NCBI GenBank assembly: GCA_000092065.1 | Contig: CP000585.1 | Source of the DNA: Ostreococcus lucimarinus | Taxonomy: Eukaryota | DNA length: 64,000 nucleotides | Reading direction: 5' to 3' (one strand) | Shown: in pieces, positions 17,671 to 63,918 of the stretch | How positions within the stretch are numbered: position 1 is the first letter of the stretch | Layout: each line of letters begins with the position of its first letter | Translations under genes and position numbers: made by a program | The notes under the pieces: generated by a model | What the model was told of the DNA's origin: nothing | Database searches by the model: none | The model's input: only the letters and a program-made list of their open reading frames with translations

Positions 17671-17711
<41 letters not shown>

Positions 17712-17981
17712 TGCCTTGGGCTTGGGCTTCTCTCTCTTCGGCCTTGGCGACGGCGAGCGCCTCTCTCTCGCCTCGCGCGGCCGATTTATGAAATCATCCC
17801 GACTTTGTCTGGTATCGACCCCCAAAAGCATCCCTTTGAAGAAATTCACTGATTTCCCGTTCGCCTCCCCGTTCTTGGCCCCCGTCCTCGTCTTACCGTC
17901 CGTCGGCGGAAGTTCGCACCCTTCGCCGCCGAATCGGCACTCTGCGCGCGCGCGAGCGATCATCGCACCATCGTCAATCAT
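5802..17981 (-). CDS. Giant (about 4,060 aa) coiled-coil protein with an N-terminal poly-Pro tract, at least 11 copies of a Trp-containing ~45-aa module, and an acidic C-terminal tail
   Basis: A single uninterrupted 12.2-kb ORF. The track start at 17987 is a TTG; the first ATG is the third codon, at 17981-17979. Heptad-like E/K/R/L/Q-rich sequence runs throughout. The module (K)SERAxLRWxxxxxxxRxxxRFxxxSKDFxxSMxxEYRLH...KTIRSL recurs. It ends in the acidic EDEPSEDGEQEEEPGYLEETEEILEIVEYDSDGNE. Undetected introns cannot be excluded. Confidence 0.7.
8024..8700. repeat. Intragenic tandem duplication, 2 x ~339 bp, near-identical, inside the giant coiled-coil gene
   Basis: The sequence from gcatttgccgacgcaggcacttgctttctcagctcgtcc through to cttaatcttttcctgagcggca occurs at about 8024-8360 and about 8361-8700 with only a few mismatches. 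The track shows identical 76-aa antisense ORFs at 8125..8355 and 8464..8694. It duplicates a 113-aa protein segment. Confidence 0.9.
9706..11693. repeat. Intragenic segmental duplication: two near-identical ~710-bp copies (9706-10415 and 10984-11693) separated by 568 bp (copy starts 1278 bp apart), inside the giant coiled-coil gene
   Basis: Identical strings such as ttgctcgaaatccgcttgcgattgctgcgcgcgtgcttcagcgctgtcagcatcagctttcatgcg begin at 9721 and 10999. Identical antisense ORFs sit at 9924.. and 11202... The duplication covers an approximately 235-aa protein segment. More diverged paralogous copies of the same unit exist elsewhere, for example about 9390-9480 against 10925-10990. Confidence 0.9.
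13875..14370. repeat. Intragenic tandem duplication, 2 x 246 bp, near-identical, inside the giant coiled-coil gene
   Basis: The sequence gtcactctcacggacttcgttcttcaatgctgccgcaaactg... occurs at 13875 and 14121. The track shows identical antisense ORFs at 13990.. and 14236... It duplicates an 82-aa segment. Confidence 0.9.
17673..17712. repeat. (GGC)13 microsatellite encoding the poly-Pro tract (P14) of the giant protein
   Basis: The run ggcggcggcggc... is visible. On the minus strand the CCG frame gives PPPPPPPPPPPPPP. Confidence 0.9.
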
Positions 17982-18808
17982 CGTCAATCGCGGTCATCGC
18001 GCGCGTTCCGATTCGCGCGCGTTCGCCTCGCCTTCGCTCGCCTCGCCTCGCCTCGCCCGCCGCGTTCAACCGCACGTACTCGCCAACCATTCAAATTTAT
18101 CGCTCCGCATCGACGCCAACGTCTCATCCGACCCCTTCGTCGTCCTCGCCCAATCCTCGCGTCCGATCGGCGTCGTCGGTCGCGCGCTCATCGCGCCTCG
18201 ATCGCCTCCGCGCCGGTCTCACGCGCGCGAACGCGACGCGATTCGAACGTTCGTTGATTCGCAATCGCAATCGCGATTCGTTCCGTGGGACGACCGTCCG
18301 CGCGGTCTCGTTCGCGTCGTTCGCGTTCGCTCGCGGTGCGCGCGCGCGTGCGTTCGCTCGCGCTCGCGCTCGCGCTCGCGCTCGCGTCGACGGCGCCGAA
18401 CACTGCCGCGCGCGCGCCTTCGGAATTGAATTCCCGAATCGAGGCCGACGCGTCATCCTCGCGCTCGACGAGTCACGACCCGTCGCGAGTGGATTTCTCA
18501 TAATACACACACGGACCGTCGCCGCCGCGGCGCCGCGCGAAGGGTCGGTCGCGCGAGTGCGCGGCGCGGACCTCGCGCGCGCGTCGAGCGACGCGTTCGC
18601 GCGCGCGCGGATCGACGCGCGCGAGCGCCCGAAGCGTCCGCGCGGACGCGCGACGGCGTCGACGCGAAAAAGCGGCGACGCGCGGTGGAATCGCGACGAA
18701 AGGACGCCGAACGGACGGACGCGGAGAATCGAACGAGCGACGGCGTGACGCGCGAGCGGACGCGCGCGCGCGCGAGTGGACGCGCGTCGGACGCGAGCGT
18801 CGAAGACG
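17982..18808. promoter_or_regulatory. Divergent (bidirectional) promoter / 5'UTR region between the giant coiled-coil gene (-) and the ACT-domain kinase (+); contains simple repeats
   Basis: The two ATGs face away from each other. The region contains (GCCTCG)n at about 18033-18058, (CGCTCG)n at about 18355-18400, and a cgcaatcgcaatcgcgattcg near-palindrome at about 18258. The inference is positional. Confidence 0.4.
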
Positions 18809-21135: not shown

Positions 21136-24100
21136 ATGGACGTCTCGGTGTTCGCGACGATCGACGCGCGATCGGGCGACGGCGGCGACGCGGGCGCGGC
21201 GACGCGCGCGCTGGCCGTCGTCGATGACCGCGCGGATGCGACGGACGCGCGACGCGCGCGCGGCGTGGCGATGACGCGCGGTGGCGCGCTGTGGAGCATG
21301 ACGCAGGTGTACGCGATGTTGCTCGTCGTCGTCGTCGGGTATAACGCGACGGCGAGCGCGTTTCGGGGACGGCGATTGGATCTGAGCCCGGAGGGGATGA
21401 TGTTGGCGGGCGGCGTCGACCCGGCGACGGTGGCGAGGTATAACGCGACGCACGGCGCGGCCTTTGGGTACGGAGCGAACGCACAGAGAACGAGCGCAGT
21501 CGCGACGCGGTGGCGACACGTGACGCGGTACGCGATTCGAGGTTCGTTCAACGCGGCCGCGGGGGCGGCGGTCGGCGCCGTCTCGCAAAGCGCGCGTTTG
21601 GCGCGAGGAAGCGTGCGATTACTCGTGCCCGCGCTCGAACGCCTGGGGCTTGGCGCGATCGTGGACGCGGTGGCCATTGTGAGCTCGACGGCGACGTCGT
21701 CGGTGAGGAATATGGTGTGGTTGGTGATGTTCGCGTCGACGCCCGTCGTCGATTTCACGCTTTTGCCGCTGTACGATTTCGTCCTCGACGGTCTCGAGCC
21801 GTTGTATCAGACATTCTTCACGGGTACGATGGATTTCTTCGAGGACATGACGTTTAACCTGGAGCAAAATCTTGCGACGGTGCTCGACGCGCGTTTGCTT
21901 TCGGTGATCAGGCGACCGATGCGAATATTCTTGAACCCGTTCAAGTGGCCGAGGGCACTGTATGACGCCTTTATTCGTCCCGCGTACGAGTTTTGCGCCT
22001 ACCCCGAGCTCTTCGACGCGCTAGACGAGCCCGTGCGGCCCATCGTGAAGCGTACGTACGGTGATAGATGTCGAGCCAGCGCGTGGGGGGATTGGACCAA
22101 GTGCAGCATGCAATGCGGTAGCGGTTTCAGAGTGCGCGTAAATCACTGCGGCAAAAAGCAGTACGAGCGATGCGTCGGCGCGGGCGTCGTCGGCTGCGAC
22201 GGCGTGTGCGATAGCGGCTTGCGAACCGACTGCAACGGCATGTGCGGTGGCAAAGCACTTCTCGACAAATGTGCGGTTTGCGGCGGTAACAACGCCGCCA
22301 TCGGCTGCGATGGCAAGTGCTTCAGCGGTATGCGAGAAGATACAGTCGGTAACTGTTGCCACGCGGCGACAATCACCGCGAGCGGCATGTGCGGAGAAGG
22401 CGACAACTTACCCGCGCATCTTAAGGCGGCAGCGGCGGCGGCTCGCGCGAAGGCGACGTCCGCAAAGAAGAATGTCTCCCTAGTGCGGCGGTTCATCAAC
22501 TTCGTGAAAGCGACGCTGCGTTTTGCGTTGAAGGCGGTCCTCGCCGTCCTTCGCGTCGTCGCCTTCGCCATTCGATTTGTTTCGGCGACGGTGACTTTTA
22601 CGCTGCACACTCTATTTTCTTCGGCCAGTCTGAAATTGGTCGGAACGCTCACTGCGTGTTACATGGCGATTGGGGTAGTCGATAAGAAGGCTCAAAAGAA
22701 CGTTGGGCAGTTTATTCGCGAAGTTGTCCCTTTCATGGATGAAGACGCAAAGGACGAGAGTCGAGTCGTCGGCGCATTCTCGAAAGCCCAAGCGGCGAAG
22801 ACGCCCAAGGAAAAGATTGAAGTCTTCGTCAAGGACCTCATTGAGAGCTTTAAGCGCGCGGGCGACGTTCCTGGTTCGATCGCGCACTATCTATCTTGGC
22901 TATGCAAGCGCTTGTACGGCGTAATCGTCGTTGTATCGCCTTTTATTCTGCAATTTCTTCGAGATGCGTCTTACGAAAACGTCGTGAGCGCACGGGCGCA
23001 GATGGCCAAAAAACATGAAGAGGCCGAAAACATTAAACGACAAAACGAAGAGCTTGCGAGGCGAATCGAGCAAGAGGTGCGCGCTGATGAGGAGCGCGAG
23101 AGACTCATGAGCGAAGCGGCAAAGGTGCGAGAAGAAGCCGCCAAAGCTGAACGTGAAGCGGCGGAGCGAGAGCAAGCGCGTCAAGAAGAAATGGCTCGCC
23201 TCACGGAAGCAGAGGCTCAAGCAAAGACGCAATTGGAAGAAGAACGAAAGAGAGCCACCAATATACTAGAACAAGAACGTGCTCAAGCGAAAGCTCGCCT
23301 CGCGGCGGAAGAGGCTCGTTTGAAGGAAGAAGCTGAACGGATCAAGCGAGAAGCGGCCCTGAAACAAGCAGAGCTGGAGCGTGAACGACAAGCGGAGCGA
23401 GAGCGCCTGGTGCGTGAAGAAGCCGAACTCAAGGAGCGTCTCGCTGAAGAGGAAGCGAAAGCGAAATCACATAGATTTGATGAGGAGGAGGCACTCAAAG
23501 TGCGCCTTGCGGAGTTGGAGGAGCGAATGAAGGAGCGCAGTGACGTCATAAAGAGGCTCGAAGCGGCGGATGTCGAAGTCAAGAAAGCCGAAGTCAGTCA
23601 GATGACGAATAGGGCTACTTCAGCTGCAGTACGTTTGGAGACGGCCGAGAACGAATTAGACAGCATGGCCAAACGCATAATCACGTTTGAGAAGGCGAAC
23701 ATGGGTAAAAAGTACGCACTCCAAAGCAAGCGCGCCATGGCAGACGCCAAGGAATACTGCGGGCTGCTTTCTGACTTTTTTGTGAGGAACGACGAACACC
23801 TTAAAGCGGAAGAAGAACTATCGATAATCACGAAATACCGAGACTTATCGAACGACGCGCCGGCTGCCCTCGTGGCCCGCTTAGAGGACGTCTCCGAGGT
23901 TCCCATCGCGATTTCGAAGCGGTTCAACTTTTTGCTCAAATACCGTGCTCGACGCAACGCCATCATCGTCTTGTCGAAACTTTCGGCGAGGCATCCTGAG
24001 GATGCGGTCAGACGCAAGTGCTTCGCCGCGTTGAACAAAATCACGCGGTCGTCGACGTTTGGTCTTATCGTCTCGGCGCGTTGTGCAGCGCTTCCAAACG

Positions 24101-24627
24101 CTCTAATGGCGATGGTGGAATGGGCGAGCTTGGGCGAAGAACGTATAACGGAGGACAACGCGCCGTGGGAGGCTATGGAACTTGTTCATAATCTCGTCTC
24201 CAGTCGACGCATGAAGCGCTCGGAAGTTCTTAGGCGCCATCTCGCCGGTGGGCTCTTCGGTCGCTGCATCTTGGCCGTGGTTAAACTCGTTCCACACATT
24301 CCCAGTTTTCAAGGAATGATCTTGGGAACGCTTTGGCAGCTCATGCGTGCCTCTGGTTACGATGCGACGCTGCAAAACGCCCTCGTCGCTGACGGCATCA
24401 TCCGCCACATCCTGGACTGCAAATCGTACGCCAAACAAAACAGTGAAGTCGCGCGCGTCTTCTGCGGCTGCGCTCTCGCGCTCGCCATGAACAACGAGCC
24501 GGTGCAAAAGCAAATGTTTGACAAAAAGTGGCCCGCGCGCATCGTCAAAATTTTAAGCCTTCACCAGGCGATCGATTACAAAGGCGAGTTCACCACGCTC
24601 AACGACTGGCTGTCGTCGAATGCGTAG
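21136..24627 (+). CDS. Large (1,163 aa) membrane-associated protein with a thrombospondin type 1 repeat, Cys-rich CxxCGG modules, transmembrane helices, a Glu/Arg/Lys-rich charged coiled-coil region and a C-terminal armadillo-like region
   Basis: ATG verified at 21136. The TSP1 signature is WGDWTKCSMQCGSGFRVRVNHCG. Cys-rich repeats are CDGVCDSG...CNGMCGG...CAVCGGNN...CDGKCFSG. Hydrophobic stretches include LKAVLAVLRVVAFAIRFVSATVTFTLHTLF. The charged region reads EEARLKEEAERIKREAALKQAELERERQAERERL. Confidence 0.7.
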   Translation: MDVSVFATIDARSGDGGDAGAATRALAVVDDRADATDARRARGVAMTRGGALWSMTQVYAMLLVVVVGYNATASAFRGRRLDLSPEGMMLAGGVDPATVARYNATHGAAFGYGANAQRTSAVATRWRHVTRYAIRGSFNAAAGAAVGAVSQSARLARGSVRLLVPALERLGLGAIVDAVAIVSSTATSSVRNMVWLVMFASTPVVDFTLLPLYDFVLDGLEPLYQTFFTGTMDFFEDMTFNLEQNLATVLDARLLSVIRRPMRIFLNPFKWPRALYDAFIRPAYEFCAYPELFDALDEPVRPIVKRTYGDRCRASAWGDWTKCSMQCGSGFRVRVNHCGKKQYERCVGAGVVGCDGVCDSGLRTDCNGMCGGKALLDKCAVCGGNNAAIGCDGKCFSGMREDTVGNCCHAATITASGMCGEGDNLPAHLKAAAAAARAKATSAKKNVSLVRRFINFVKATLRFALKAVLAVLRVVAFAIRFVSATVTFTLHTLFSSASLKLVGTLTACYMAIGVVDKKAQKNVGQFIREVVPFMDEDAKDESRVVGAFSKAQAAKTPKEKIEVFVKDLIESFKRAGDVPGSIAHYLSWLCKRLYGVIVVVSPFILQFLRDASYENVVSARAQMAKKHEEAENIKRQNEELARRIEQEVRADEERERLMSEAAKVREEAAKAEREAAEREQARQEEMARLTEAEAQAKTQLEEERKRATNILEQERAQAKARLAAEEARLKEEAERIKREAALKQAELERERQAERERLVREEAELKERLAEEEAKAKSHRFDEEEALKVRLAELEERMKERSDVIKRLEAADVEVKKAEVSQMTNRATSAAVRLETAENELDSMAKRIITFEKANMGKKYALQSKRAMADAKEYCGLLSDFFVRNDEHLKAEEELSIITKYRDLSNDAPAALVARLEDVSEVPIAISKRFNFLLKYRARRNAIIVLSKLSARHPEDAVRRKCFAALNKITRSSTFGLIVSARCAALPNALMAMVEWASLGEERITEDNAPWEAMELVHNLVSSRRMKRSEVLRRHLAGGLFGRCILAVVKLVPHIPSFQGMILGTLWQLMRASGYDATLQNALVADGIIRHILDCKSYAKQNSEVARVFCGCALALAMNNEPVQKQMFDKKWPARIVKILSLHQAIDYKGEFTTLNDWLSSNA

Positions 24628-40404: not shown

Positions 40405-41547
40405 ATGAAGTGGTACCTAGGGTATACCACCGCGCACCACGTCACGGGGTTCTTAGCGTGGACGAGCGCGATCGTCGCCGTCGCGCTCGTCGCCATGCAC
40501 GTGAAGCACTACACCATGCCGCGGGTGCAGCGACACATAAATCGAGTGATTCTCGTCGTGCCCGTGTTCTCGTTGCTGAGCTGGATCTCGCTCGTGATCG
40601 AAAATAATAAGGCGGAGTTCTACATCGAGGTCGTGCGAGATTGCTACGAGAGCTGGGTGGTGTACAACTTTTTGAATCTTTGTCTGGCGTACGTCGGCGG
40701 ACCGGGCGCCATCGTGAACGCCATGGCTGGGAAGGAGATCAAAGTCGGTTCTTGGTTGCGCGGGACGTGCATCTTTGATCGTGATTTAGTGGTAGATGGG
40801 AACTACATTCGGCGGTGCAAACAAGGATGCTTGCAGTTCGTGTTTATCAAGCCGATTTTGTCGGTTATAGAAATCGTGCTGCAAGCCAAAGGGAAGCTCG
40901 GCGACGGACAGATCAACTTTTTGAAGGCGTACGTGTACATTCTCTTCGTGTATAACATTTCATACACACTCGCTTTGTACGCGCTGTGGATGTTTTACTT
41001 GGGCGCACACGACCCACTGGCGAAGTACAATCCGTTACTCAAGTTTATCATCGTCAAGAGCGTGATCTTTTTGAGCTTTTGGCAAAGCTTCTTCACCGCC
41101 ATGGCGGTGCGCACGGGAAGTTTGGATAGCCCCGAAGAAGGTCGCGCGGTGCAGGACGTACTTATTTGCTGCGAGATGTTCGTCGTATCGTTGATGATGT
41201 GGTTCGCGTTCCCATACACCGATTTCGTCGACCCAACGGGCGCCAAGCGTGGCTTCGTCTCCAACGTCGTCAACTTTGTCTCTGTGCGCGACGTCTTTGA
41301 CGATACGGTGCATCAGTTTGGGGCGACATATCAAGACTACACGCTTCACGGTGACGGAGAGACACCGGATAGGACGGTGAAGATGCGTACATTCGTTCCT
41401 ATGGGTCGTTCGAGCGCACCCGAGCACGACACCGCGAGCCTGTCGGCGAACGCGTCGGTGTGGGACGACCTGGAAGCGGCGGCAAACGCGCCCCCGCTTC
41501 GAAGCGACGCGCCTGAACACGAGTTGGCGACGATCGGCGAAGAATAA
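40405..41547 (+). CDS. TMEM184 / OST-alpha family (DUF300) multi-pass membrane protein
   Basis: ATG verified. The seven-TM core reads ...YESWVVYNFLNLCLAYVGGPGAIVNAM...FLKAYVYILFVYNISYTLALYALWMFY...LLKFIIVKSVIFLSFWQSFF, typical of DUF300. Confidence 0.8.
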   Translation: MKWYLGYTTAHHVTGFLAWTSAIVAVALVAMHVKHYTMPRVQRHINRVILVVPVFSLLSWISLVIENNKAEFYIEVVRDCYESWVVYNFLNLCLAYVGGPGAIVNAMAGKEIKVGSWLRGTCIFDRDLVVDGNYIRRCKQGCLQFVFIKPILSVIEIVLQAKGKLGDGQINFLKAYVYILFVYNISYTLALYALWMFYLGAHDPLAKYNPLLKFIIVKSVIFLSFWQSFFTAMAVRTGSLDSPEEGRAVQDVLICCEMFVVSLMMWFAFPYTDFVDPTGAKRGFVSNVVNFVSVRDVFDDTVHQFGATYQDYTLHGDGETPDRTVKMRTFVPMGRSSAPEHDTASLSANASVWDDLEAAANAPPLRSDAPEHELATIGEE

Positions 41548-41618
41548 AATTAGGAATGAGTTAGCGGATGAGTTGTTAGTACCAGATATAATTACATGGA
41601 CGGAAATACATGCCAGCG

Positions 41619-42545
41619 TCAATCCAGATAGAACAAGGTGACGAGCTTTCGCATAGTTTTCGCGTTGCGGCACGTTTCGAGCAAAAGTCTGGAATCGTGA
41701 AAAGCGAAGACGATGATTTGTTTCACCTTACTCACGATCGTGTCGTTGCATATCCTCGACGCCTCTACGAGAGGCATGCCGTCGTTCTCCGGGGCTTCGA
41801 CGATTTGCGCCACGCCCTCCAACAGCTCCCTCGATTCTCGCGGTTGCTTGGCCAGACTTTGCGGTAAAACCACTGTGAGCAATTCGGGCTGCTCGGCGCG
41901 AAGCGCCCCTCTGATCACCGCCGCGTTCGTCCCGGTGGCACCACTCGTGTATATGTGATTCCCCGTCAAACAAAGCGCGTACGCCAAAATTTCAATCAAC
42001 TGCTGGTGCATGAAACCCATATTCCTCGTCCCGAAGAAGCCGATTTCCTTCGGGCAGTCCTCTTGAATCGCGATGAGCTCTTGCAAGTAATCCACATCCA
42101 GCGTCATCCCGCTCGGTTTATCCTCAACCGCGGCCACACCTTTCACGACAGCCTCACCTTGCGTCGACAGCCCGTCGCCCGAGTAATCCGCGCCGAACAA
42201 ACCCTCCAAATCTTCTCGCGGTCCGCCGCGCGTCGTCTCGCGACCCCGGTCGCCGACGTCGCCGGCGTCTCGCGACACCGACGTCTCATCCCGCGCGCCC
42301 GCGCGCGCCCGCGCGTCTCTCTCGCGCGCTCCGCGCGTCATCGTCGTCCGCGACGCGCGCGTCATCGCGTCTCCGCGCGTCGCGCGTCGCGCGTCGTCGC
42401 CGCGATGATCCCATCGCACCGGTGCCGACACGCGTCGCCGTTCGAGCGTCGCGACCGGTCCCGCGCGCGCGCCGGCGCCGCGCGCGCGCGCTCGAAACGC
42501 TCGCGCGTCCCCCACCGCGCGCGTCGCGCCGCGCATCGTCGACAT
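41619..42545 (-). CDS. DprA/Smf-like Rossmann-fold protein with a long Arg/Ala-rich (transit-peptide-like) N-terminus
   Basis: ATG verified at 42545. The core IGFFGTRNMGFMHQQLIEILAYALCLTGNHIYTSGATGTNAAVIRGAL...LTVVLPQSLAKQPRESRELLEGVAQIVEAP follows the DprA pattern (GSR..s..G......la..La..g..vvSG.A.GID.aAH.gAL...T.aVL..Gld..YP..n..L). The assignment is from memory of the family profile. Confidence 0.5.
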   Translation of the reverse strand: MSTMRGATRAVGDARAFRARARGAGARAGPVATLERRRVSAPVRWDHRGDDARRATRGDAMTRASRTTMTRGARERDARARAGARDETSVSRDAGDVGDRGRETTRGGPREDLEGLFGADYSGDGLSTQGEAVVKGVAAVEDKPSGMTLDVDYLQELIAIQEDCPKEIGFFGTRNMGFMHQQLIEILAYALCLTGNHIYTSGATGTNAAVIRGALRAEQPELLTVVLPQSLAKQPRESRELLEGVAQIVEAPENDGMPLVEASRICNDTIVSKVKQIIVFAFHDSRLLLETCRNAKTMRKLVTLFYLD

Positions 42546-42636
42546 CGCGCGCGCGTCGCGATCTCAAGTTTCGACGCCACCATCGCGCGCGCACGACGCC
42601 CGTCCCGCCGCACTGCGCGACGCGCGGTCGGCGGAG
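42546..42636. promoter_or_regulatory. 91-bp divergent promoter region between the DprA-like gene (-) and USO1 (+)
   Basis: The two verified ATGs are at 42545 (-) and 42637 (+). Confidence 0.4.
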
Positions 42637-45519
42637 ATGCACCGCCTCGGCGCCGTGGCGTCGTCGTTCAAGCACGGCGCGTCGAGCGTGGCGAAAAACA
42701 TCGTCTTCGGCGCGCCCGAGGACGATTCGGGCGCGGGCGCCGAGCCGTTGCTGGACGAACTCACCGAGGGCGTCCTCGGCGCCGATCGCATCGCCGCCGC
42801 GGAAGCGCTGCGACGGTTGATCGAAAAGGATGAACGCGCGCGGTCGTTCGTCGCCGAGCGAGGGCTGGTGAAGATGTTCGAGACGCTGCGGGATACGAAC
42901 GATGACGACGGTTTGGTGCGCGCGACGCTGGAGACTATGCGAGCGGCGGCGAGCGGAGAAGCGAGCGAAGGACGCGAACGGGCGCGAGAGGTGATCACGG
43001 GAGACGTGAATAACGTGAAACAGTTGGTGAGTGAGCTTAGGGGGGTGGATTTTTATTCAAAGCTGCACGCGGCGCAGACGCTGAGCGAGGCGAGCGAGAC
43101 GCGAGGCGAGGCGATGCGAGCGGGAATGTTGGCGGATCCCACCGCGGTGCCGACGCTGATGGATGCGATGAAGGAAAATGAAGTGATTCGTAATGAAATA
43201 CTATTGCTTCTTGTGTCGCTGACGAGAGGAAACGAGGAGTTGCAAAAGATCGTTGCGTTTGAGGGCGCGTTTGAGCGCGCGTTCGCCGTGATGCGAGAGG
43301 AGGGTGGCGTCGACGGCGGCGTGGTCGTGCAAGACTGTTTGGAGTTGTGCAATAACTTACTCAGGGATAATCCTAGCAACCAGACCTTGTTTCGCGAGAG
43401 CGGGTTTGTGCGCAGCGTTCCGGGCATGGCGGCGGTGGAGCGTGAGATTGGTAATGCCGGCATGCAAGGAATTTCGGCGCAAAAAGCAGCGAATACGTTG
43501 TGCGCGCTCGAGACGGTGCATCTACTGGTTAGCCCTGATGAAGAAAGTGGGAAACGTAAGCACTTGAACAGAGATGACGAGCTAGATGCGATGATGAAGC
43601 AGCAACGCTTGCAGGGTTGTCGAGCGAACCAAAGCGAATTGGCCAAGCACGGAACGGTGGAAATTCTTGTGCGAGCGGCATTGGGAGATTCAGCGGTGAA
43701 CGCCGTCAGTGTGCGCGTCGCAGCCTTACGCGCATTGGCGGCGCTCGTGCGCGACCATGAAGGTAACCAGACCGCGTTGTTTAGCGCCACGGCTGATCGT
43801 GCGGGCACGGTGACTGAACCAGCGCTGTTGTCGTGCGGCCGAGCGGCGCTACATAGCGAATCGCCAGCTGAGCGCAGTGCCGCAATATTAGTTTTAGGCG
43901 CGGCGATGCTCGGAAATCCCGATGGTCAGCTACTGCTCGTATCCACGCTCGCACCGACTGGTCTAGGAGCTGATGACAGGAGTGAGGAGTCGTCGCTTGG
44001 TGGGTTACTTGCCCGAGCTCTTATGCAGAAGGGCGGATCGAGCGTGGCGTTCGACGAAGCCAGCACAGCGGCGGCGAGTGTTCTTCGCGACATGCTGCAC
44101 AAAAACGATCAAAGTAAACTCAAAGCACTACGGGTAAACTTGGAACCACTGAGCTCACGCTCGAACGCGTCTGAACTGTTGCTTCCTCGTTGCGTGCGCC
44201 AACTCGCGGTGACGCACGCTCGGGAAGAGGATGAAGAAAAGGTGGAAAAGCTGCAGTCGGTTCTCTTGCGGCTTTTGATCGTGTGGCTATACGAGTGCAA
44301 GGCGGCGGTTGAAGCGTTTTTGTCGTCCCCGGGGCATCTTCCCGCCATAGCCGATCTGGCACGAACTGGCGGAAGCACAGAATCGCCCCATGTCGCCGCG
44401 CTCGCATGCGTCGTGTTGGGATGCTGCTTGCTCGAAAACTCTGGGAGCGTGCTCGACGTCGTCTCTGCCCGAGTGGGATTGCAGAATTTCTTCATGAAGT
44501 GGGAGACGATGACGAAGTCATCGCTGTACGCCGACGCGTCGAGAGCACCCACGTTGCCAAAACCTTTGACGCGAGCGAATGCGGCGAAGTTCGCGACGCA
44601 GAGTGAGGGAGCGGAGGATGTCTCACCCGGTGGAGGATTGTACGATCACGACATTACAGTGTTCATCAACGAGTTAGAAGAGCGCGTGAAGTCGGCAATA
44701 ATGTCACTGTATGCGAAGCCTTCGGGCGCTGGAGATGAGTGTGCGGTGTCGAGCGTGGCTAAACGAGAGGACGAAGACGACGTCTCATACGCGCGGCGCT
44801 TACAAGAGGCACTTCAAGCGAGTGAGTCGGAATTAGCGGAGGTGCGCTCGCGAAACGCCGTACTGGCAGAACAGATTTTGGGCGTTGCACCGACATCGGC
44901 AAACGCGAGCGATGATCCATCCGCAGTGGCGAAGAACGGCGCGCGTCACGCGTCCGCCGAAGCCCTTCACGCCGCCGTCGAGGCGGCGAAGCGAGCGAGC
45001 GCCCAAGAGATCGCATCCCTAACTTCCGAGCTTGAGGAAGTCAAAAAAGTGGCCGAAGAACGTCAGGAAGCCCTCACGTCATTGAGCACGGCGTATAACG
45101 GTTTAGAAGCGGAGGTGTATCGTCTCGAAACTGAAGCCAATGGCTTGCGCGAAAAGCTCCACGCGTCTTCGGAATTTGGCGGCGGCGCCGCGCCCGAGAC
45201 CTCATCTTTAGACATCGCGCGAGAAGCCGGCCGCGAAGAAGGTCGCCGTCTCGCTGAGGCTGAAGCAGAGTTACGCATCCGTGACGCCGTCGACGCCGCG
45301 CTCGTGGACGCCGATTCTCGCCTCCGCGCCGCCGTCGAAGCCGCCGTCGCCGACGCTCGCGCCGCCGACGAAGCAGAGCTCAACGATCTTCTCGCCTGTC
45401 TCGGGCAAGAGGAAGCGTCCAAGGAGCACTTGCTCGCTAAACTCATCGCCGCGGGCGAGAGCGAGGCCGCGCTATTGGACGAGCTCGCGTCCATCGTCAT
45501 CGAGGACGTCGACGCGTAG
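42637..45519 (+). CDS. USO1: General vesicular transport factor p115 / USO1 (plant golgin candidate 6-like): armadillo N-terminal domain, coiled-coil tail, acidic C-terminus
   Basis: ATG verified. Strong match to the p115 armadillo region: VIRNEILLLLVSLTRGNEELQKIVAFEGAFERAFAVMREEGGVDGGVVVQDCLELCNNLLRDNPSNQTLFRE against human IRNDGVLLLQALTRSNGAIQKIVAFENAFERLLDIISEEGNSDGGIVVEDCLILLQNLLKNNNSNQNFFKE. The C-terminus is a coiled coil plus IEDVDA. Confidence 0.85.
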   Translation: MHRLGAVASSFKHGASSVAKNIVFGAPEDDSGAGAEPLLDELTEGVLGADRIAAAEALRRLIEKDERARSFVAERGLVKMFETLRDTNDDDGLVRATLETMRAAASGEASEGRERAREVITGDVNNVKQLVSELRGVDFYSKLHAAQTLSEASETRGEAMRAGMLADPTAVPTLMDAMKENEVIRNEILLLLVSLTRGNEELQKIVAFEGAFERAFAVMREEGGVDGGVVVQDCLELCNNLLRDNPSNQTLFRESGFVRSVPGMAAVEREIGNAGMQGISAQKAANTLCALETVHLLVSPDEESGKRKHLNRDDELDAMMKQQRLQGCRANQSELAKHGTVEILVRAALGDSAVNAVSVRVAALRALAALVRDHEGNQTALFSATADRAGTVTEPALLSCGRAALHSESPAERSAAILVLGAAMLGNPDGQLLLVSTLAPTGLGADDRSEESSLGGLLARALMQKGGSSVAFDEASTAAASVLRDMLHKNDQSKLKALRVNLEPLSSRSNASELLLPRCVRQLAVTHAREEDEEKVEKLQSVLLRLLIVWLYECKAAVEAFLSSPGHLPAIADLARTGGSTESPHVAALACVVLGCCLLENSGSVLDVVSARVGLQNFFMKWETMTKSSLYADASRAPTLPKPLTRANAAKFATQSEGAEDVSPGGGLYDHDITVFINELEERVKSAIMSLYAKPSGAGDECAVSSVAKREDEDDVSYARRLQEALQASESELAEVRSRNAVLAEQILGVAPTSANASDDPSAVAKNGARHASAEALHAAVEAAKRASAQEIASLTSELEEVKKVAEERQEALTSLSTAYNGLEAEVYRLETEANGLREKLHASSEFGGGAAPETSSLDIAREAGREEGRRLAEAEAELRIRDAVDAALVDADSRLRAAVEAAVADARAADEAELNDLLACLGQEEASKEHLLAKLIAAGESEAALLDELASIVIEDVDA

Positions 45520-58120: not shown

Positions 58121-59206
58121 ATGACGCACAAGGTGAAGTTTGCGAGCGGTAACTCGTATGAGCTGGCGCTGGTGAGCGATACGCTCGGGGCGGAGGAGGT
58201 TGGGAAGAAGTTTGAGGCGATTCGCGAGGAGCACGCGGACCTGCGCGAACGGTCGCTGGCGTTGAAGGCGTATTTGAAAGAGTTGAGCGGCAAGCATAAA
58301 TTTTCGTTCGTCGTGATCGACGATACGACGAAACGTGTTTTTGCCGCGGCGACGCAGTTCAGCGCGCCGTTGTCGTTCGGCCATTCGAAGGATGGGATGC
58401 TCGTTTTGTTTTGCGGCGCGGGGGGGAAGTCGGTGGCGACGCACTGGCCGCTCAACGAGCAAGAGGTGACCCAATGCGCGCAGCACGGCGAGGCGGCGCG
58501 ACGTCGAAGCATTGATGTGAGAGATCGTCCACCCGCGAACGCGGCCGGCGGCAGTAGGCGAAGCGTGGACGGCGGTAGGCGAAGCGTGGACGGCGGCAGG
58601 CGAAGCGTGGACGGCGGTCGCCGCAGCATCGACGAAAAAGCAGTCTTCACGTCTGAAGTCGGCTGGGTCGATCCGGGCGCCACCGTGCCAGTGGATTTCA
58701 CTCACAACAGGATCGTGCTCACGCATCTCCCAGTCGGGCGCTTCGTGTACGGGCACGGGTACCTACAGCCGTACGAGTTCACCTCGTTTTGGAGCAGCGC
58801 CCAGAGCAACCGCGCCGGCGTGCCCGAGCGGGCGTTCCACAGCGGCAATGACTGGTCAAAGGAGTCGCCCAACAGCAGCCGAAGAAGTAGTTTCGACGTC
58901 AACAGCGCCGACGGCGCGCCTCGACGTTCCAGCATCGACGAACGTCATCGCAAATGGGAAAGCACCAATTCAAAGTGCGACACCGAGGCGAGTTGGAAAA
59001 AACCCGCCGCAGAAGCGAAGCGCCCGCTCCCACCGCGTTCGCCGATAAAAAGCCAAGAACCCATCGTGCCTTCGCTCGAGAAATTATCCGTCAAGGACGG
59101 CGAGAAGAAAAAGAGCTCGCTCGGGTCAAAAATCCGTCGAAACCTGTCTGTCGAAAGTCTCAAAAAAGCCTTCGGCGTCGCGGGCAAGAAATCCGAAGAC
59201 GCGTGA
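58121..59206 (+). CDS. Hypothetical Ser/Arg/Lys-rich protein containing a 4x tandem heptapeptide repeat (GGRRSVD)
   Basis: The track start at 58043 is a GTG, and the first in-frame ATG is at 58121 (MTHKVKFASGN...). The composition is protein-like (K, E, F, Y), unlike the antisense ORF at 57659..58756. No family recognised. Confidence 0.4.
   Translation: MTHKVKFASGNSYELALVSDTLGAEEVGKKFEAIREEHADLRERSLALKAYLKELSGKHKFSFVVIDDTTKRVFAAATQFSAPLSFGHSKDGMLVLFCGAGGKSVATHWPLNEQEVTQCAQHGEAARRRSIDVRDRPPANAAGGSRRSVDGGRRSVDGGRRSVDGGRRSIDEKAVFTSEVGWVDPGATVPVDFTHNRIVLTHLPVGRFVYGHGYLQPYEFTSFWSSAQSNRAGVPERAFHSGNDWSKESPNSSRRSSFDVNSADGAPRRSSIDERHRKWESTNSKCDTEASWKKPAAEAKRPLPPRSPIKSQEPIVPSLEKLSVKDGEKKKSSLGSKIRRNLSVESLKKAFGVAGKKSEDA
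58553..58636 (+). repeat. 21-bp tandem repeat x4 (GGYAGKCGAAGCGTGGACGGC-like) encoding GGRRSVD x4
   Basis: The run ggcagtaggcgaagcgtggacggcggtaggcgaagcgtggacggcggcaggcgaagcgtggacggcggtcgccgcagcatcgac is visible. Confidence 0.85.
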
Positions 59207-59463
59207 CGCGAACGACCAGATATTCCGCCCCGCGCTCGCCTCGCGCCATTGTATTCTTAAACGCCACCCCATCCGCCTCGCCACTCGCCTCGCCGCTCAC
59301 ATTCCAGCATCGTCGCGTCGTGATACGCGAGGGTGTTAACCACCTCAATCAATCCAGTCATCCCGCGCGACCGCACACGCGCGCGTTTCGTCCGCGTCGA
59401 GCCGTGCGCATCGCGTGCGACACCGATCGACGCGTTTCGTCGAGCGGCGTCGCCGGACGCGTC

Positions 59464-59529
59464 ATGGGCGCCGAACCGACGGCGCGATCGGTCGTCACGA
59501 CCGCGAGCGGTCGGTTGACGACGGTGAAA

Positions 59530-59560
<31 letters not shown>

Positions 59561-62500
59561 TGAAAACGGCGCAGGGCGATGGCGAGAGCCCGTCGAGCGT
59601 GGCGTCGCCGTCGTCGTTCGGACTCGACTACCTGTTCGGTGTTTTTCGCGGAGGCTCGACGGCGAGCGAGGACGCGCCGGACGCGCCGGACGCGGACGCC
59701 GAGCCGAGGGACGACGACGCGAAGGCGGATGGCGTTCACGCGAAGGTCGGCACGGTGGTGCGAAGGTTTCAGGATGTTTACGATCAAGCGGAGGTGCGGA
59801 TGAGCGCGGCGCAGATGGTGTTTGAACGCGCGGCGACGGAGGCGACGACGGCGCAAGAACGCGCGGCGGCGGCGAAGAAGAGCGGACTGCCCGGAGCAGC
59901 GCAAGTCGCGGATGCAGTGCTGAAGCAAGCGAATATGAAACTGGAGCGCGCGTCTGTTGACTTTCAAGAGGCGGAGAAGGAGCTCAAGAGAGCAGCGGCG
60001 ACGAAGCGCGACGCGGAGGTGGAGCTCGCGGCGAGCGACAAGGCGCGGCGAGCGCGCGAGCGTTTGTTCGAGGGCAAAGGAAGAAAGGGAGGTTACGATG
60101 CAGACGTGGATGTCGAGGCGAAAAAGCTTGCCGCGGTGATTAAGCTCCAGCGTGCTTGGCGCCGATACGCGGAGCGGAAGCGAGCGAAACATCCGGATGC
60201 AATCGCGAGGACCATCGTTCGGCGTATTTTCTCTCGCGAAAGCGCCTTCGCAATTCTCGTCGCCTTTCTCGTTTTCTCCGGGTCGTTGTTCGCTGACGAC
60301 GCCGTGGGCGTTGGACAAAAAGGAGTTGGGATGATGGAAGCGATCCGCACGTTCTCGGCGCTCGATCACGGCTATCTGGCCCGCGGCGTCACCTCTGGCA
60401 CGGTCATGGCTGAGCTCACCGTGTTGCGAACGCGGCATGAAAATCTTCTCAGCGATGTCGACGAATGCGAGGCATCTCTAGACGCCCTGCGTCGTGGTGA
60501 GAGCGATGGCTGGGGAGGCGCTATGAAATCACCGCTCGCGGGCTCGTGCAGTTACAAACTACGAGAGGCCGAAAAAGAGTTGGCACGCCTGAAAAAGAAC
60601 AGCGAAGTCGACTCTGCGATCGCTGTGGATAAGCAAATCCGGCTTCTTCGCGCTGAGCTCACGCTTTCGAGACAACAATTCGAGCACCAGAAGTTCAAAC
60701 ACGAAGAGGATGTTGCGTATTTAACCGCCGTTCACGAGGCCGAGAACGAAAAGCTCATGGCGCACGCACAGGCAAACATCATGGACGCAAAGCACGAGGG
60801 AGCGCGATGGTTGCGTAAATCCCAACTCGAGCTCGAAGACGCGCAGATGGAGGTTTCTACGCTGCAAGATCGAGTGCTGGTCTATGAAAGAGAGCTTCGA
60901 GGTGATCCTTCCAGTTCAACGAACTTGCTCAAACAACACGACGCGCTAGTCAAGAAGCTCAAGAAGAAGCACGCCGCCGCCATTCAAGCGCTCGATTCGG
61001 ACTTCCGCGCCAAGCTGTCCGAAAGTAAAGCTGAAAACGTCAAATTTAAGAATCGCGATATCGACAGTCTTGAAAAGCTCAAGGAGAAACATGCGATCGT
61101 GCAGCGAAGCCTTGAGGAGACGATCAAACTTGCGAATGAACATGCGAATGCTGCAAAGGATCAAGTGTGCAAATCAAAGAAATCAAGCACCTTGACTTTC
61201 CTCGTCTACCCGCTCATCGCCGCTGTAGGTCTCCTGTTGGGTGTCGTAGCGAATTCAAACCACCAAACCGTCTCGAGTACGTCGAAATCAAAAGAACCTA
61301 CCGTGGAACCAGTTGTAGGCGTGCCAGTGTGCAAGCGATGCGAAGCCGCCGAAGCGCGGAGTAAGCAAATGCAGACAAGATGCGAATTCGCGGAAGACGC
61401 TAGTGCGAATCTTCGAAAAGAAATCAAGACACTTCAGGAGGACAACGCACGTGTGACCAAACGTTTGTCGCAACGCGTTGTTGTCAAGACCTCGAAGCTT
61501 GAGGGTAGTGAAGCACGAGAGCACGCCGAAGACGAGCACGGGCTCGAACAAGAGAACATTAAACTCACGACTCGAGTACACGAAGCGCAAGCGCGAGCGT
61601 TAGAGCTTACCGAGCAGAAAGAAATGTTGACGGTACGCGTTAACACAATTCAAAAGAAGTTGATTGAAGAGGGTGGGGTCATCAAAGAGCTTTCAGACAA
61701 ACTCGTTCACTCCGAGAAGGAGAATTTTGAGCTTCGACAAGTGGTTGAAGAATCTCGCGCGGACACGGCATCAGCAGAAAAGCGAATGGCCGATCTTATC
61801 AACTCACTCGATAGCACTGGTAAAGAGCGAGGTGGCCTGCAAAACGAGCTCGAGAGTGCAAACAAAAGGCTCAAAGACGCCGCGGCGCAACTCACCAAAT
61901 CCTCGGCGGCAGCGAAACAAAAGGATGAAAAAATTGAGACACTTCTTTCATCGAAGGAAGACGTCGAGAAGCAGCTCACGTTGGTCGCAGAAGATTTGGC
62001 TATTTTCAAAGAGCGATACGCCGCCGGTGAGCGCACCAAAGCGCAGCTCGAGGCGCATAATGCTGATTTGCAAGCACAACTGCGCAGATCAAAGTCGATG
62101 CACGAAACTCAAATTACGCAGCTTCAACAGCGACTCAGCGAAATTGATTCTGATCGCGAAGGCTTGAATAATGAGCAGGAGCGTCTCCTTGAAGAAGTCG
62201 TGTCCAAGCAAGAGGAAGTGGATCAACTGATGGCGCAAGTCATTAAGCTCCAAGACAGCGACGAGGCGTTGGGTGATGAGCTCGCTGATTTGATCAAGAT
62301 CAACGAATCCATGCGAGAACGATTGGAAATGCAAGAAGAGCTCCTCGCGCAGTCGCGCGAAAAGGATTTGGTCATCGTCGAGCACGAGTCTAACTTGGAT
62401 GCCCTGAATTCGCGATATGAAAAGACAAAGTCCAAGTTGAAGGCGTGTGAAATTTCGCGTGACGAAGGAGTTACTCAGCTTCGCAACCGCGATACTCGCA

Positions 62501-63918
62501 TCGAATTTTTGGAGGAGGAGCTGGCGTCAATTCGAGAGCTGCAAGGAGCCAATAGCGCGCGTCTTTCTGATCAGCTCAAACGTCTGGGTGAACTCGAAAT
62601 GGACGCTGGACGAAAGAAAGCGGCGAAGGAAGCGGCGGAATTGAAACTTGAGCAATCAGAGGCTGCGGCGAGAAAGACTGTGGCGCATTTGGAAGAAGAA
62701 ATTTCCAACTTACAAAACCAGCTCGCGAGCGAAAGGACGGCCGCAGAAATTTCGAGAGCGTCTGGTGACGTGAACGCTGCGAGACTTCGTCAAGAGACGC
62801 GCCAGCTGCAGGAGAAGATTGACGCGTTGAACGCTTGCGAAAGCGAAAAGGCGCAAATGAGTCAAGAGATCGCGCGACTTGAACAAGAGATGGAAGAGCT
62901 ACGCAGCCGGTTGGCTGAGCTTTTAGCGGAGTTAAGCGATATGAAACGAACTGGACAAGCTACTTCGCCCCTTGAAGTCGTGCAAGTCGAAGAAGAACGT
63001 CAAACGTTGGTGTACGACGAAGCCGCGGATATGCTACGAGGATTGAAACGAGTCTCCTTATTCAATCTCCTGTACTCTGTGTCTTTTGCCAAGGTTAGGG
63101 ATCAACGACAGTGGAATTCGTTGACGCTCAGTGCTTTATCTACTGCCGTGCGTCCGATCCCAACGCCACGGAAGCGCGACGCTGCGTATTACGCAAAGAA
63201 GCGCTGCGCCCGCGTTTTGGTTCACTTGGCGACGACGCCGGCTCATCACAACATTCCCCGCTCCGGCTGGCTCGAACACGAACAAGGGTCGATGTCGAAA
63301 GCGGTTGGCTGGCACGATGCCGAGGACGTATGGACATGGGCGACGCGCGCGCTCGCCGCAATTTCTCGCGTCTTCCAAGGACCAAATGCGCATCAAATGT
63401 ACCAACTCGGCGGCTTGCAAACCGCTTTGGAGTTGATGCGTCACGCCGAGTCGGCCGTAGATATTCAGCTTCACGGAGCAAGATCAATCAGCGGATTGAT
63501 ATCTGGCGAGCTTGCGTTTTTCGGCCGCGACGCTCCTCAAATTGTCAGCGGCAGCGCGCTCGAGACGCTCGCGGTGACCCTGCGCACGTTCCCACTCGAC
63601 GTTCGAGTCGTTCGTGCAGCCGCCCGCGCAGTGTGGGTGTGCATCCACCTCGGTGGTCAATTCGGACAGCACACCTTTGTGCAACAACAAGTCTACGAAC
63701 CGCTCATGTTCGCCATGAACTGTCACCTTGGGGATTTGAAAGTCGTGGAATCGTGCTGCGGCGCCGTCCTCGCGGCAGCGTCAGCCAATCCTGACACCCA
63801 ACAGAAACTTGCGGACTCGGGTGTTCGTGATGTCGTCCGCGACACGTTACAAACTATCAGCGAAGTGTCGTTCAGTGGCGCGTTTACCGACCTCAGTGAT
63901 TGGCTTTTCGAAGCGTAG
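59464..63918 (+). CDS. Second giant coiled-coil protein (about 1,480-1,650 aa): basic N-terminus, poly-Thr tract, IQ-like motif, one transmembrane segment, long coiled coil, C-terminal armadillo/HEAT-like region
   Basis: One ORF spans 58954..63918. The ATG at 58954 overlaps the upstream gene in another frame, so an in-frame ATG at 59464 (MGAEPTARSV) is preferred. The IQ-like motif is AAVIKLQRAWRRYAERKRAKH. The TM segment is LTFLVYPLIAAVGLLLGVVANS. Coiled-coil sequence is extensive (EEL..., LQ...). The C-terminal 270 aa are non-coiled and helical-repeat-like. Confidence 0.6.

Follow-up and report, generated by a model that had tools for sequence, protein, structure and literature searches.

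Our analysis of a 64,000-nucleotide stretch of Ostreococcus lucimarinus DNA (contig CP000585.1 of assembly GCA_000092065.1; hereafter, the window) identifies a minus-strand gene whose 308-residue product is a member of the SLOG (Smf/DprA-LOG) superfamily, with DprA as its closest known relative. We hold this assignment of family and fold with high confidence. The homology to DprA is remote but significant, and by the tests made the protein is not a bona fide DprA; its family is a divergent SLOG variant of the DprA clade with unusually strong conservation. The protein is likely located in the plastid. We tentatively propose that it is a DprA-like plastid factor that binds single-stranded nucleic acid and takes part in DNA recombination or repair, a role that we consider somewhat short of probable.

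The open reading frame (ORF) listing of the window contains an ATG-initiated ORF at 41619..42545 (-), with its TGA stop at 41619-41621, whose product includes the stretch ...IGFFGTRNMGFMHQQLIEILAYALCLTGNHIYTSGATGTNAAVIRGALRAEQPELLTVVLPQ.... An earlier sequence-only reading had singled out this ORF and quoted part of its product, and both are confirmed here, as 308 residues on the minus strand. The window has a GC content of ~60% and many overlapping ORFs, so that ORF length by itself is no proof of a gene; long spurious ORFs overlap this one on both strands. They are Arg-rich and 200-300 residues long (41955..42833 (+), 41035..41673 (-) and others), and are typical artefacts of GC-rich DNA. 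The 308-residue ORF is a real gene because the identical protein is recorded in 761 blocks of the public assembly collection, because it has more than 1000 homologs, and because ~100 columns of the family alignment are invariant from prasinophytes to angiosperms. There is no need to invoke an intron, since the ORF aligns from the conserved pre-domain through the common C-terminus of the family, ...LFYLD followed by the stop. Hundreds of genomes already list the gene under the name "uncharacterized protein", and it is not in itself a discovery.

Relationship to DprA

The profile libraries point to DprA and to no other family. The Pfam model PF02481 aligns with residues 163-246 over positions 42-124 of its 212 (15.8 bits, E = 0.0079), and is the sole Pfam match in all 19 aligned members, each of which falls below the gathering threshold of 29.6 bits (best E = 0.0046); the melainabacterial member P0251 scores just under that threshold (29.4 bits, E = 5.4e-7). 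TIGR00732, the sole NCBIfam match, gives 13.3 bits for the 308-residue protein, 25.0 for P0251 and 21.4 for a glaucophyte member, against an equivalog cut-off of 191.15 bits. Thus neither curated DprA cut-off is reached by the algal protein. The only matches in PHROGs are to the DprA-like phrog_768, and in PADLOC, for the bacterial member, to the DprA-like PsyrA. Models of LOG, LDcluster4, STALD and YpsA matched none of the 19 members; as a positive control, a real LOG protein encoded in a melainabacterial locus (L021) scored 63.3 bits on the LOG model. The LOG motif PGGxGTxxE is absent from all 317 complete family cores. The sequence-only reading would have been refuted by best matches to LOG/TIGR00730; this was not the outcome, as only models of DprA type were matched in Pfam, NCBIfam, PHROGs and PADLOC.

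Profile-profile comparison locates the shared region. We used hhalign with a profile of 11 genuine DprAs, comprising E. coli Smf and ten DprA-type genes found with it as query in a phage-record collection. The family profile aligned over 55 columns (76.6% probability, E = 2.1e-5), pairing the G-[ST]-R strand with the G-[ST]-R of DprA, and TSG..GTNaAvIRGAl with SGlA.GID.aAH.aAL. The similarity is confined to the first third of the domain (beta1-alpha2). Against E. coli Smf alone, hhalign gave no significant match (E = 0.74), and PDB sequence searches with the single protein or the family profile returned no significant match and did not reach the DprA chains. A hidden Markov model of genuine DprAs, run over ~1 Mb of melainabacterial DNA, recovered exactly the 76 family genes; no canonical DprA was found within the melainabacterial flanks.

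The sequence-only reading called this a DprA/Smf gene. Its core is indeed DprA/Smf-like, in its sole profile matches and its best fold, but it is not a recognisable DprA orthologue. A true orthologue, derived from the smf gene of the cyanobacterial endosymbiont, merely diverged and loading RecA as bacterial DprA does, would be in keeping with the rank of DprA at the top of every library and of the fold searches, and with the retention of the first DNA-binding motif (below). We regard this as highly improbable. Scores lie under every curated cut-off, and only 55 columns can be aligned. None of the 317 cores has the second DNA-binding motif, and the Pfam profile finds no counterpart for its first ~40 positions. 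Melainabacterial members that carry all the family motifs form a separate clade with 100% support. Pfam also found neither an N-terminal SAM domain nor a C-terminal DML1/winged-helix domain in the 308-residue protein or in other members, which counts against orthology without disqualifying it, because these domains are not universal and single-domain DprAs exist (PMC3950713).

The names attached to family members in source databases conflict, and none is backed by a passing domain match: 'Cysteine sulfinate desulfinase/cysteine desulfurase', 'Cyanobacteria-specific protein', 'DNA recombination-mediator protein A' and 'putative inositol-tetrakisphosphate 1-kinase 4-like' all occur (P0294, P0085, P0402, P0414, P0419). 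Such names, found on some UniRef and NCBI entries, are all that speaks for the corresponding functions. That the protein should be a cysteine sulfinate desulfinase/cysteine desulfurase, a LOG/lysine-decarboxylase-like protein or an inositol-tetrakisphosphate kinase (ITPK) is hardly credible, given labels that contradict one another and a fold that is a 160-residue SLOG Rossmannoid. We rejected these assignments on finding no aminotransferase class V, LOG or ITPK Pfam match in the 19 members. Three other entries, P0007 (Morella rubra, 361 residues), P0034 (Papaver, 403 residues) and P0135 (1,682 residues), have a partly duplicated core or a long unrelated N-terminal fusion, and are probably tandem duplications or annotation errors. 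The one precomputed PF02481 match in the family belongs to P0007, probably because its repeat doubles the score.

Fold

Structural models support the same relationship over nearly the whole domain. AlphaFold2 (AF2) predicts residues 1-148 of the full protein to be disordered; the core modelled alone with a broad alignment reaches a mean predicted local distance difference test score of 91.7 and a predicted template-modelling (TM) score of 0.85. It adopts a Rossmannoid fold of SLOG type with glycine-rich loops after strands 1 and 2, in which a leading helix (DYLQELIAIQ) is followed by six beta-alpha units and the chain ends at ...LFYLD (strand 6). In Foldseek searches of the PDB, the top 13 matches of the first model are all DprA, as are the top 11 matches of the high-confidence core model (TM-score 0.69-0.71 over ~153/160 residues). 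For each of two independent models, the closest folds are those of DprA crystal structures, and the fold is of the DprA-type Rossmann class. In every structural search, DprA outranks LOG, Moco carrier protein, YpsA and ThsA-SLOG.

A conserved crevice with one of two DNA-binding motifs

The DprA domain that binds single-stranded DNA (ssDNA) is defined by two motifs (Wang et al., PMC3950713). Motif 1 is G-S/T/A-R, in which Arg52 of HpDprA acts as a 'switch' essential to ssDNA binding and the R52E substitution costs ~315-fold in affinity. Motif 2, on helix alpha6, is F/L/Y-x-x-R-N/D (or A-M-x-R-N/D), and the HpDprA mutants R143E and F140E lose ~173-fold and ~18-fold in ssDNA affinity (PMC3950713). 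We compared the 317 complete family cores with 10 genuine DprAs. Motif 1 is kept in 309 cores and lacks its Arg in 8. The motif layout described in the sequence-only reading holds, except that the first motif of the algal protein is G-T-R and not G-S-R. Motif 2 differs throughout: R-N occurs in none of the 317 cores and C-N in all of them, preceded by A-x-x-x, whereas all 10 genuine DprAs have [FL]xxRN. From the helix register and a low-confidence global hhalign alignment, we infer that Cys266 stands at the position of DprA Arg143, and Ser or Ala at that of Phe140. This equivalence is not an observation, because forced global or low-MAC hhalign runs gave no trustworthy alignment beyond helix 2.

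The family is invariant at G-T-R, T-S-G-x-x-G-T-N, L-P-Q, E-x-P-x-N-D, C-N, F-x-H-D-S and the terminal L-D. These residues lie at the C-terminal ends of strands and on helix 4. Rossmann-like proteins bind their ligands at the C-terminal strand ends, and together the invariant residues would form a Rossmannoid crevice that binds a nucleotide moiety. In one algal subgroup (P0240, P0254, P0236, P0262, P0263; 99% bootstrap) the Arg of motif 1 is replaced (GTS/GTQ/GTN). Its members have signal-peptide-like leaders, a longer TSGGGNGTN loop and a ...FFLD end, and may represent a paralogue whose ligand differs.

Protein architecture and plastid targeting

Ahead of the core, the sequence-only reading saw an Arg/Ala/Thr-rich leader of ~140 residues. 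A leader does exist, but this segment has three parts and the last is not leader. Residues 1-110 are unconserved, disordered and Arg/Ala-rich, with a presequence-like first segment and a low-complexity linker (Table 1). Residues 111-150 contain a motif shared with land plants, FG.D...[PS]TQ...V.G, and therefore belong to the mature protein. Residues 1-45 are probably a plastid transit peptide; their composition fits an algal organellar presequence, and composition cannot tell plastid from mitochondrion. Organelle targeting, also proposed in the sequence-only reading, is thus plausible, and the choice of organelle has to come from relatives.

Those relatives favor the plastid. The Arabidopsis orthologues AT2G43945 and AT3G59870 share 70-71% core identity with the algal protein, the same pre-domain motif and the same C-terminus, and the motifs of their orthogroup (TSG..GTN, LPQ, C-N, F.H.S, C-terminal LD) are all present in it. 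A preprint of August 2026 on the chloroplast chaperone CLPD describes both as plastid-localised and as candidate CLPD interactors or substrates. The two locus identifiers are absent from the examined supplements of a plastid/mitochondrial proteome atlas. Family members of algae with secondary plastids have leaders of signal-peptide type. Because of this, and of the plastid localisation of the Arabidopsis orthologues, we consider a plastid location of the 308-residue protein likely. The mature protein would then work in the stroma or the nucleoid.

Distribution and phylogeny

Members of the family are known from green, glaucophyte and red-derived plastid lineages and from Melainabacteria. Named members come from a glaucophyte (Gloeochaete), a brown alga (Discosporangium), a chromerid (Vitrella) and a dinoflagellate (Effrenium), and the many signal-peptide-like leaders point to secondary plastids. 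In prokaryotes, a scan that took one genome for each species gave at least 577 matches. The best 80 of these are leaderless 188-residue proteins, almost all labelled Gastranaerophilales/Melainabacteria; a few are labelled otherwise (e.g. Muribaculaceae, Methanobacteriaceae) or are unclassified. No oxygenic cyanobacterial member is among the matches listed, and no match was found on plasmids or phages. One UniRef entry of the family carries the name "Cyanobacteria-specific protein".

In a neighbour-joining tree, the melainabacterial proteins form a clade with 100% support outside the green (99%), glaucophyte (100%) and other algal clades, to whose members they are 37-47% identical. This placement fits an old origin within Cyanobacteriota and not a recent transfer from a plant. 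Since melainabacterial members already have all the family-specific motifs and branch as a clade of their own, the split from DprA is older than plastids, and the family is an old and separate one. This speaks against a diverged copy of cyanobacterial Smf, as implied by the sequence-only reading. The remark of that reading that the function is scarcely characterised was apt, as the family is uncharacterised. The apparent spread over all plastid lineages and Melainabacteria, with no oxygenic cyanobacterium among the matches listed, would be out of the ordinary for a gene derived from the endosymbiont, should it be confirmed.

Phyre2 is reported to model three ORFs of cryptophyte nucleomorphs, Gt1_228, HAN_1g126 and CMESO_444, as DprA, and cyanobacterial homologs have been described for them (PMC6559170). 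Their products are presumably destined for the plastid and may belong to the present family, which in cryptophytes would then have been retained in the nucleomorph.

Genomic context in Melainabacteria

We examined the surroundings of the family gene in melainabacterial loci (L007-L086), in which it lies near 6001-6560 where the flanks are complete. A UvrD/PcrA-type helicase gene (PF00580 and PF13361) adjoins it divergently in 64 of 76 loci. A HEAT-repeat protein is encoded downstream in 38 of the 76, a NUDIX hydrolase two genes downstream in 14, and a Cof-type HAD phosphatase three genes downstream in 13. Outer neighbours vary, the commonest -2 gene being found in only 6 loci. The palindrome CAAAA-N6-TTTTG recurs in 30 of 62 intergenic regions between the UvrD and family genes; these are AT-rich promoter DNA, in which it cannot be interpreted. 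The UvrD pairing is no more than suggestive.

Possible function

Taken with the fold, these data lead to the proposal that the crevice would bind the nucleotide of a single-stranded nucleic acid, as it does in DprA, and that the protein would act on single-stranded plastid DNA in recombination, repair or replication restart. It could possibly assist plastid RecA, although a RecA-loading activity is conjecture. As motif 2 is altered, the mode of binding must differ from that of canonical DprA. Plastids depend on RecA-dependent recombination for genome integrity, and we know of no RecA loader in plastids. Plastid RecA exists, and a review table lists no homologs of the bacterial RecA loaders RecFOR and RecBCD in Physcomitrella, Arabidopsis or Chlamydomonas (PMC7076466). 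With ~70% identity between picoalgae and Arabidopsis, plastid-localised orthologues and the bacterial pairing with UvrD, the family is a concrete candidate for this gap. Its function is not specific to photosynthesis, since Melainabacteria are non-photosynthetic.

Several observations weigh against a role in DNA recombination or repair. The R-N of motif 2, with its DNA-contacting Arg, is missing from every core, and even the Arg of motif 1 is gone in one algal subgroup. Family cores are neutral (median isoelectric point 7.1, net charge 0), whereas the isoelectric point of 7 of the 10 DprA domains exceeds 8.7. An enzyme or a small-ligand site seems the closer parallel for a core that is ~70% identical in a prasinophyte and Arabidopsis and has invariant Cys, His, Ser and Asn in its crevice; RecA mediators are usually fast-evolving. 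We are aware of no experimental link between the family and DNA. No SOS box was recognised in the 62 UvrD-family intergenic regions, where matches to LexA/SOS boxes (Cheo, E. coli, cyanobacterial and alpha-proteobacterial) numbered 0-1 each. All melainabacterial loci come from one order, so that the synteny with UvrD may partly reflect shared ancestry. The CLPD preprint of August 2026 calls domain predictions for AT2G43945 and AT3G59870 "inconclusive" and their function undetermined.

The main rival to a DNA-binding role draws on some of the same data. As a small-molecule protein of SLOG type, the family could bind or process a free nucleotide-derived ligand in its crevice (for example ADP-ribose or other NAD derivatives, a nucleoside monophosphate or an alarmone; compare LOG, PpnN, ThsA-SLOG, YpsA and Moco carrier protein) and serve as a metabolic enzyme or sensor of the plastid, with the invariant Cys266, His283 and Ser285 as catalytic or ligand-contact residues. 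The SLOG superfamily has been described as binding low-molecular-weight molecules or free nucleotides and catalysing nucleotide processing (PMC6459960). An invariant Cys in place of the DNA-contacting Arg, the invariant His and Ser, the neutral core and the extreme conservation of the crevice loops all suit such a site, as do the NUDIX hydrolase and Cof-type HAD phosphatase genes downstream in Melainabacteria and the co-trapping of the Arabidopsis orthologues with stromal metabolic enzymes in the CLPD preprint. On the other side, no model of a ligand-binding SLOG family matches any of the 19 members, against 63 bits for the LOG control, and PGGxGTxxE is lacking throughout. The strand-4/helix-4 layout, E.P....A...CN..I, appears to follow SE.P....F..RN.I of DprA and not LOG, and the most strongly conserved neighbour is a DNA helicase, not a gene of nucleotide metabolism. 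We judge a small-molecule role only slightly less likely than the proposed role on DNA.

The ligand could also be RNA. A crevice that binds single-stranded RNA, in plastid RNA metabolism or ribosome biogenesis, would agree equally with the fold, as a nucleotide pocket does not separate DNA from RNA. The very high conservation might be that of a partner of the translation apparatus, and a housekeeping task of this kind would be common to plastids and the non-photosynthetic Melainabacteria. No conserved neighbour related to RNA and no match to an RNA-binding family was found, and the conserved partner is a UvrD-type DNA helicase; we judge an RNA-directed role improbable. We also rejected a defence-system role of the ShosA/PsyrA kind, since eukaryotic members have no PADLOC match, no toxin partner was found, and nothing occurs on plasmids or phages.

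Returning to DNA recombination or repair, one can envision a more specific scenario, which is speculative and, taken whole, unlikely. In it, the family would supply the presynaptic factor that plastid recombination is missing. An ancient derivative of DprA from the cyanobacterial lineage, with a remodelled pocket for plastid ssDNA (G-T-R and an invariant, possibly redox-sensitive Cys-Asn), would hand ssDNA to plastid RecA, in opposition to or together with UvrD-type helicases. It would have been kept by every plastid and by Melainabacteria, and is not evident in oxygenic cyanobacteria. Even if the protein has no role on DNA, it is among the most conserved plastid proteins without a function, and the crevice with its invariant Cys, His and Ser offers clear targets for mutagenesis.

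The locus and its neighbours

The sequence-only reading placed the gene in a eukaryotic nuclear setting, and its neighbours bear this out: they encode Uso1/p115, an OSTalpha-type transporter and, beyond these, an N-myristoyltransferase. The locus is compact, intron-poor, eukaryotic and nuclear. The spacer toward the Uso1/p115 gene is presumed to be a bidirectional promoter. The coordinates of the gene, its parts and both spacers are collected in Table 1.

Table 1. Features of the DprA-like gene and its flanks, in window coordinates
Feature	Position	Strand	Basis or remark
Complete intron-less coding sequence, 308 residues plus TGA	41619..42545	-	ORF listing and homology; orthologue of Arabidopsis AT2G43945/AT3G59870
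Residues 1-45, presequence-like N-terminus, 24% Arg, 24% Ala, net charge +9, two acidic residues	42411..42545	-	Composition
Residues 46-110, low-complexity linker, mixed-charge, R/D/T/G-rich	42216..42410	-	Unconserved even among close relatives
Residues 111-150, semi-conserved pre-domain (EDLEGLFGADYSGDGLSTQGEAVVKG...)	42096..42215	-	Column identity 0.42-0.51
Residues 151-308, SLOG/DprA-like Rossmannoid core, 158 residues	41622..42095	-	
G172-T173-R174, equivalent of DprA motif 1	42024..42032	-	hhalign with DprA G-[ST]-R
T200-S-G-A-T-G-T-N207, family-invariant glycine-rich loop after strand 2	41925..41948	-	Aligns with DprA S-G-l-A-x-G-I-D
L227-P-Q229, invariant loop after strand 3	41859..41867	-	
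A262-S-R-I-C266-N267, helix alpha4, at the place of DprA motif 2	41745..41762	-	Putative equivalence
F282-H-D-S285, conserved loop after strand 5; H and S invariant family-wide	41691..41702	-	
Spacer, 91 bp, GC-rich, toward the divergent Uso1/p115 gene (42637..45519 +)	42546..42636	.	ORF map and composition; presumed promoter
Spacer, 71 bp, AT-richer, toward the convergent OSTalpha-type transporter gene (40405..41547 +)	41548..41618	.	

Elsewhere in the window, a single ORF of 4,061 residues (5802..17987, -) is E/A/L/R/K-rich and coiled-coil-like throughout, with a poly-Pro run near its N-terminus, and probably encodes a giant coiled-coil protein. It has no Pfam match at E<1e-5 and coincides with the stretch of the window that has low GC (0.50-0.55) and a strongly negative AT-skew. 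Two further long ORFs, 58954..63918 (+; 1,654 residues) and 21136..24627 (+; 1,163 residues), are likewise without a Pfam domain at E<1e-5. The whole 64-kb window is devoid of tRNA genes.

Comparison with known systems

The LOG phosphoribohydrolases (PF03641, TIGR00730) share the superfamily and differ from the present family, which has neither their PGGxGTxxE motif nor a Pfam or NCBIfam LOG match. ShosA and PsyrA, the DprA-like antitoxins of ShosTA and PsyrTA, differ in another way. No phosphoribosyltransferase-like toxin partner is found near the family genes, which stay off plasmids and phages and show the housekeeping-like distribution of vertical inheritance. The nearest proteins with any experimental record are AT2G43945 and AT3G59870. 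Their N-terminal leaders cannot be aligned with that of the algal protein, and Arabidopsis has two paralogues where the algal window has one copy. As neither the algal nor the Arabidopsis protein has a known function, this comparison yields localisation and not mechanism.

The most informative comparison is with bacterial DprA/Smf (PF02481; structures 4LJK/4LJR, 3UQZ and 3MAJ). The two share detectable homology over beta1-alpha2, G-[ST]-R and S-G-x-x-G loops in equal places, and a helix-4 Asn followed three positions on by a hydrophobic residue, as in R-N-R-I-I. The family departs from DprA in replacing the Arg of motif 2 by an invariant Cys and the Phe by Ser or Ala, and in having a single helix (DYLQELIAIQ) instead of the first ~40 positions of the Pfam profile. 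It also scores below the DprA thresholds, lacks the SAM and DML1/winged-helix domains, is neutral, and is far more conserved. Finally, unlike bacterial DprA, the 308-residue protein is eukaryotic and predicted to be targeted to an organelle.

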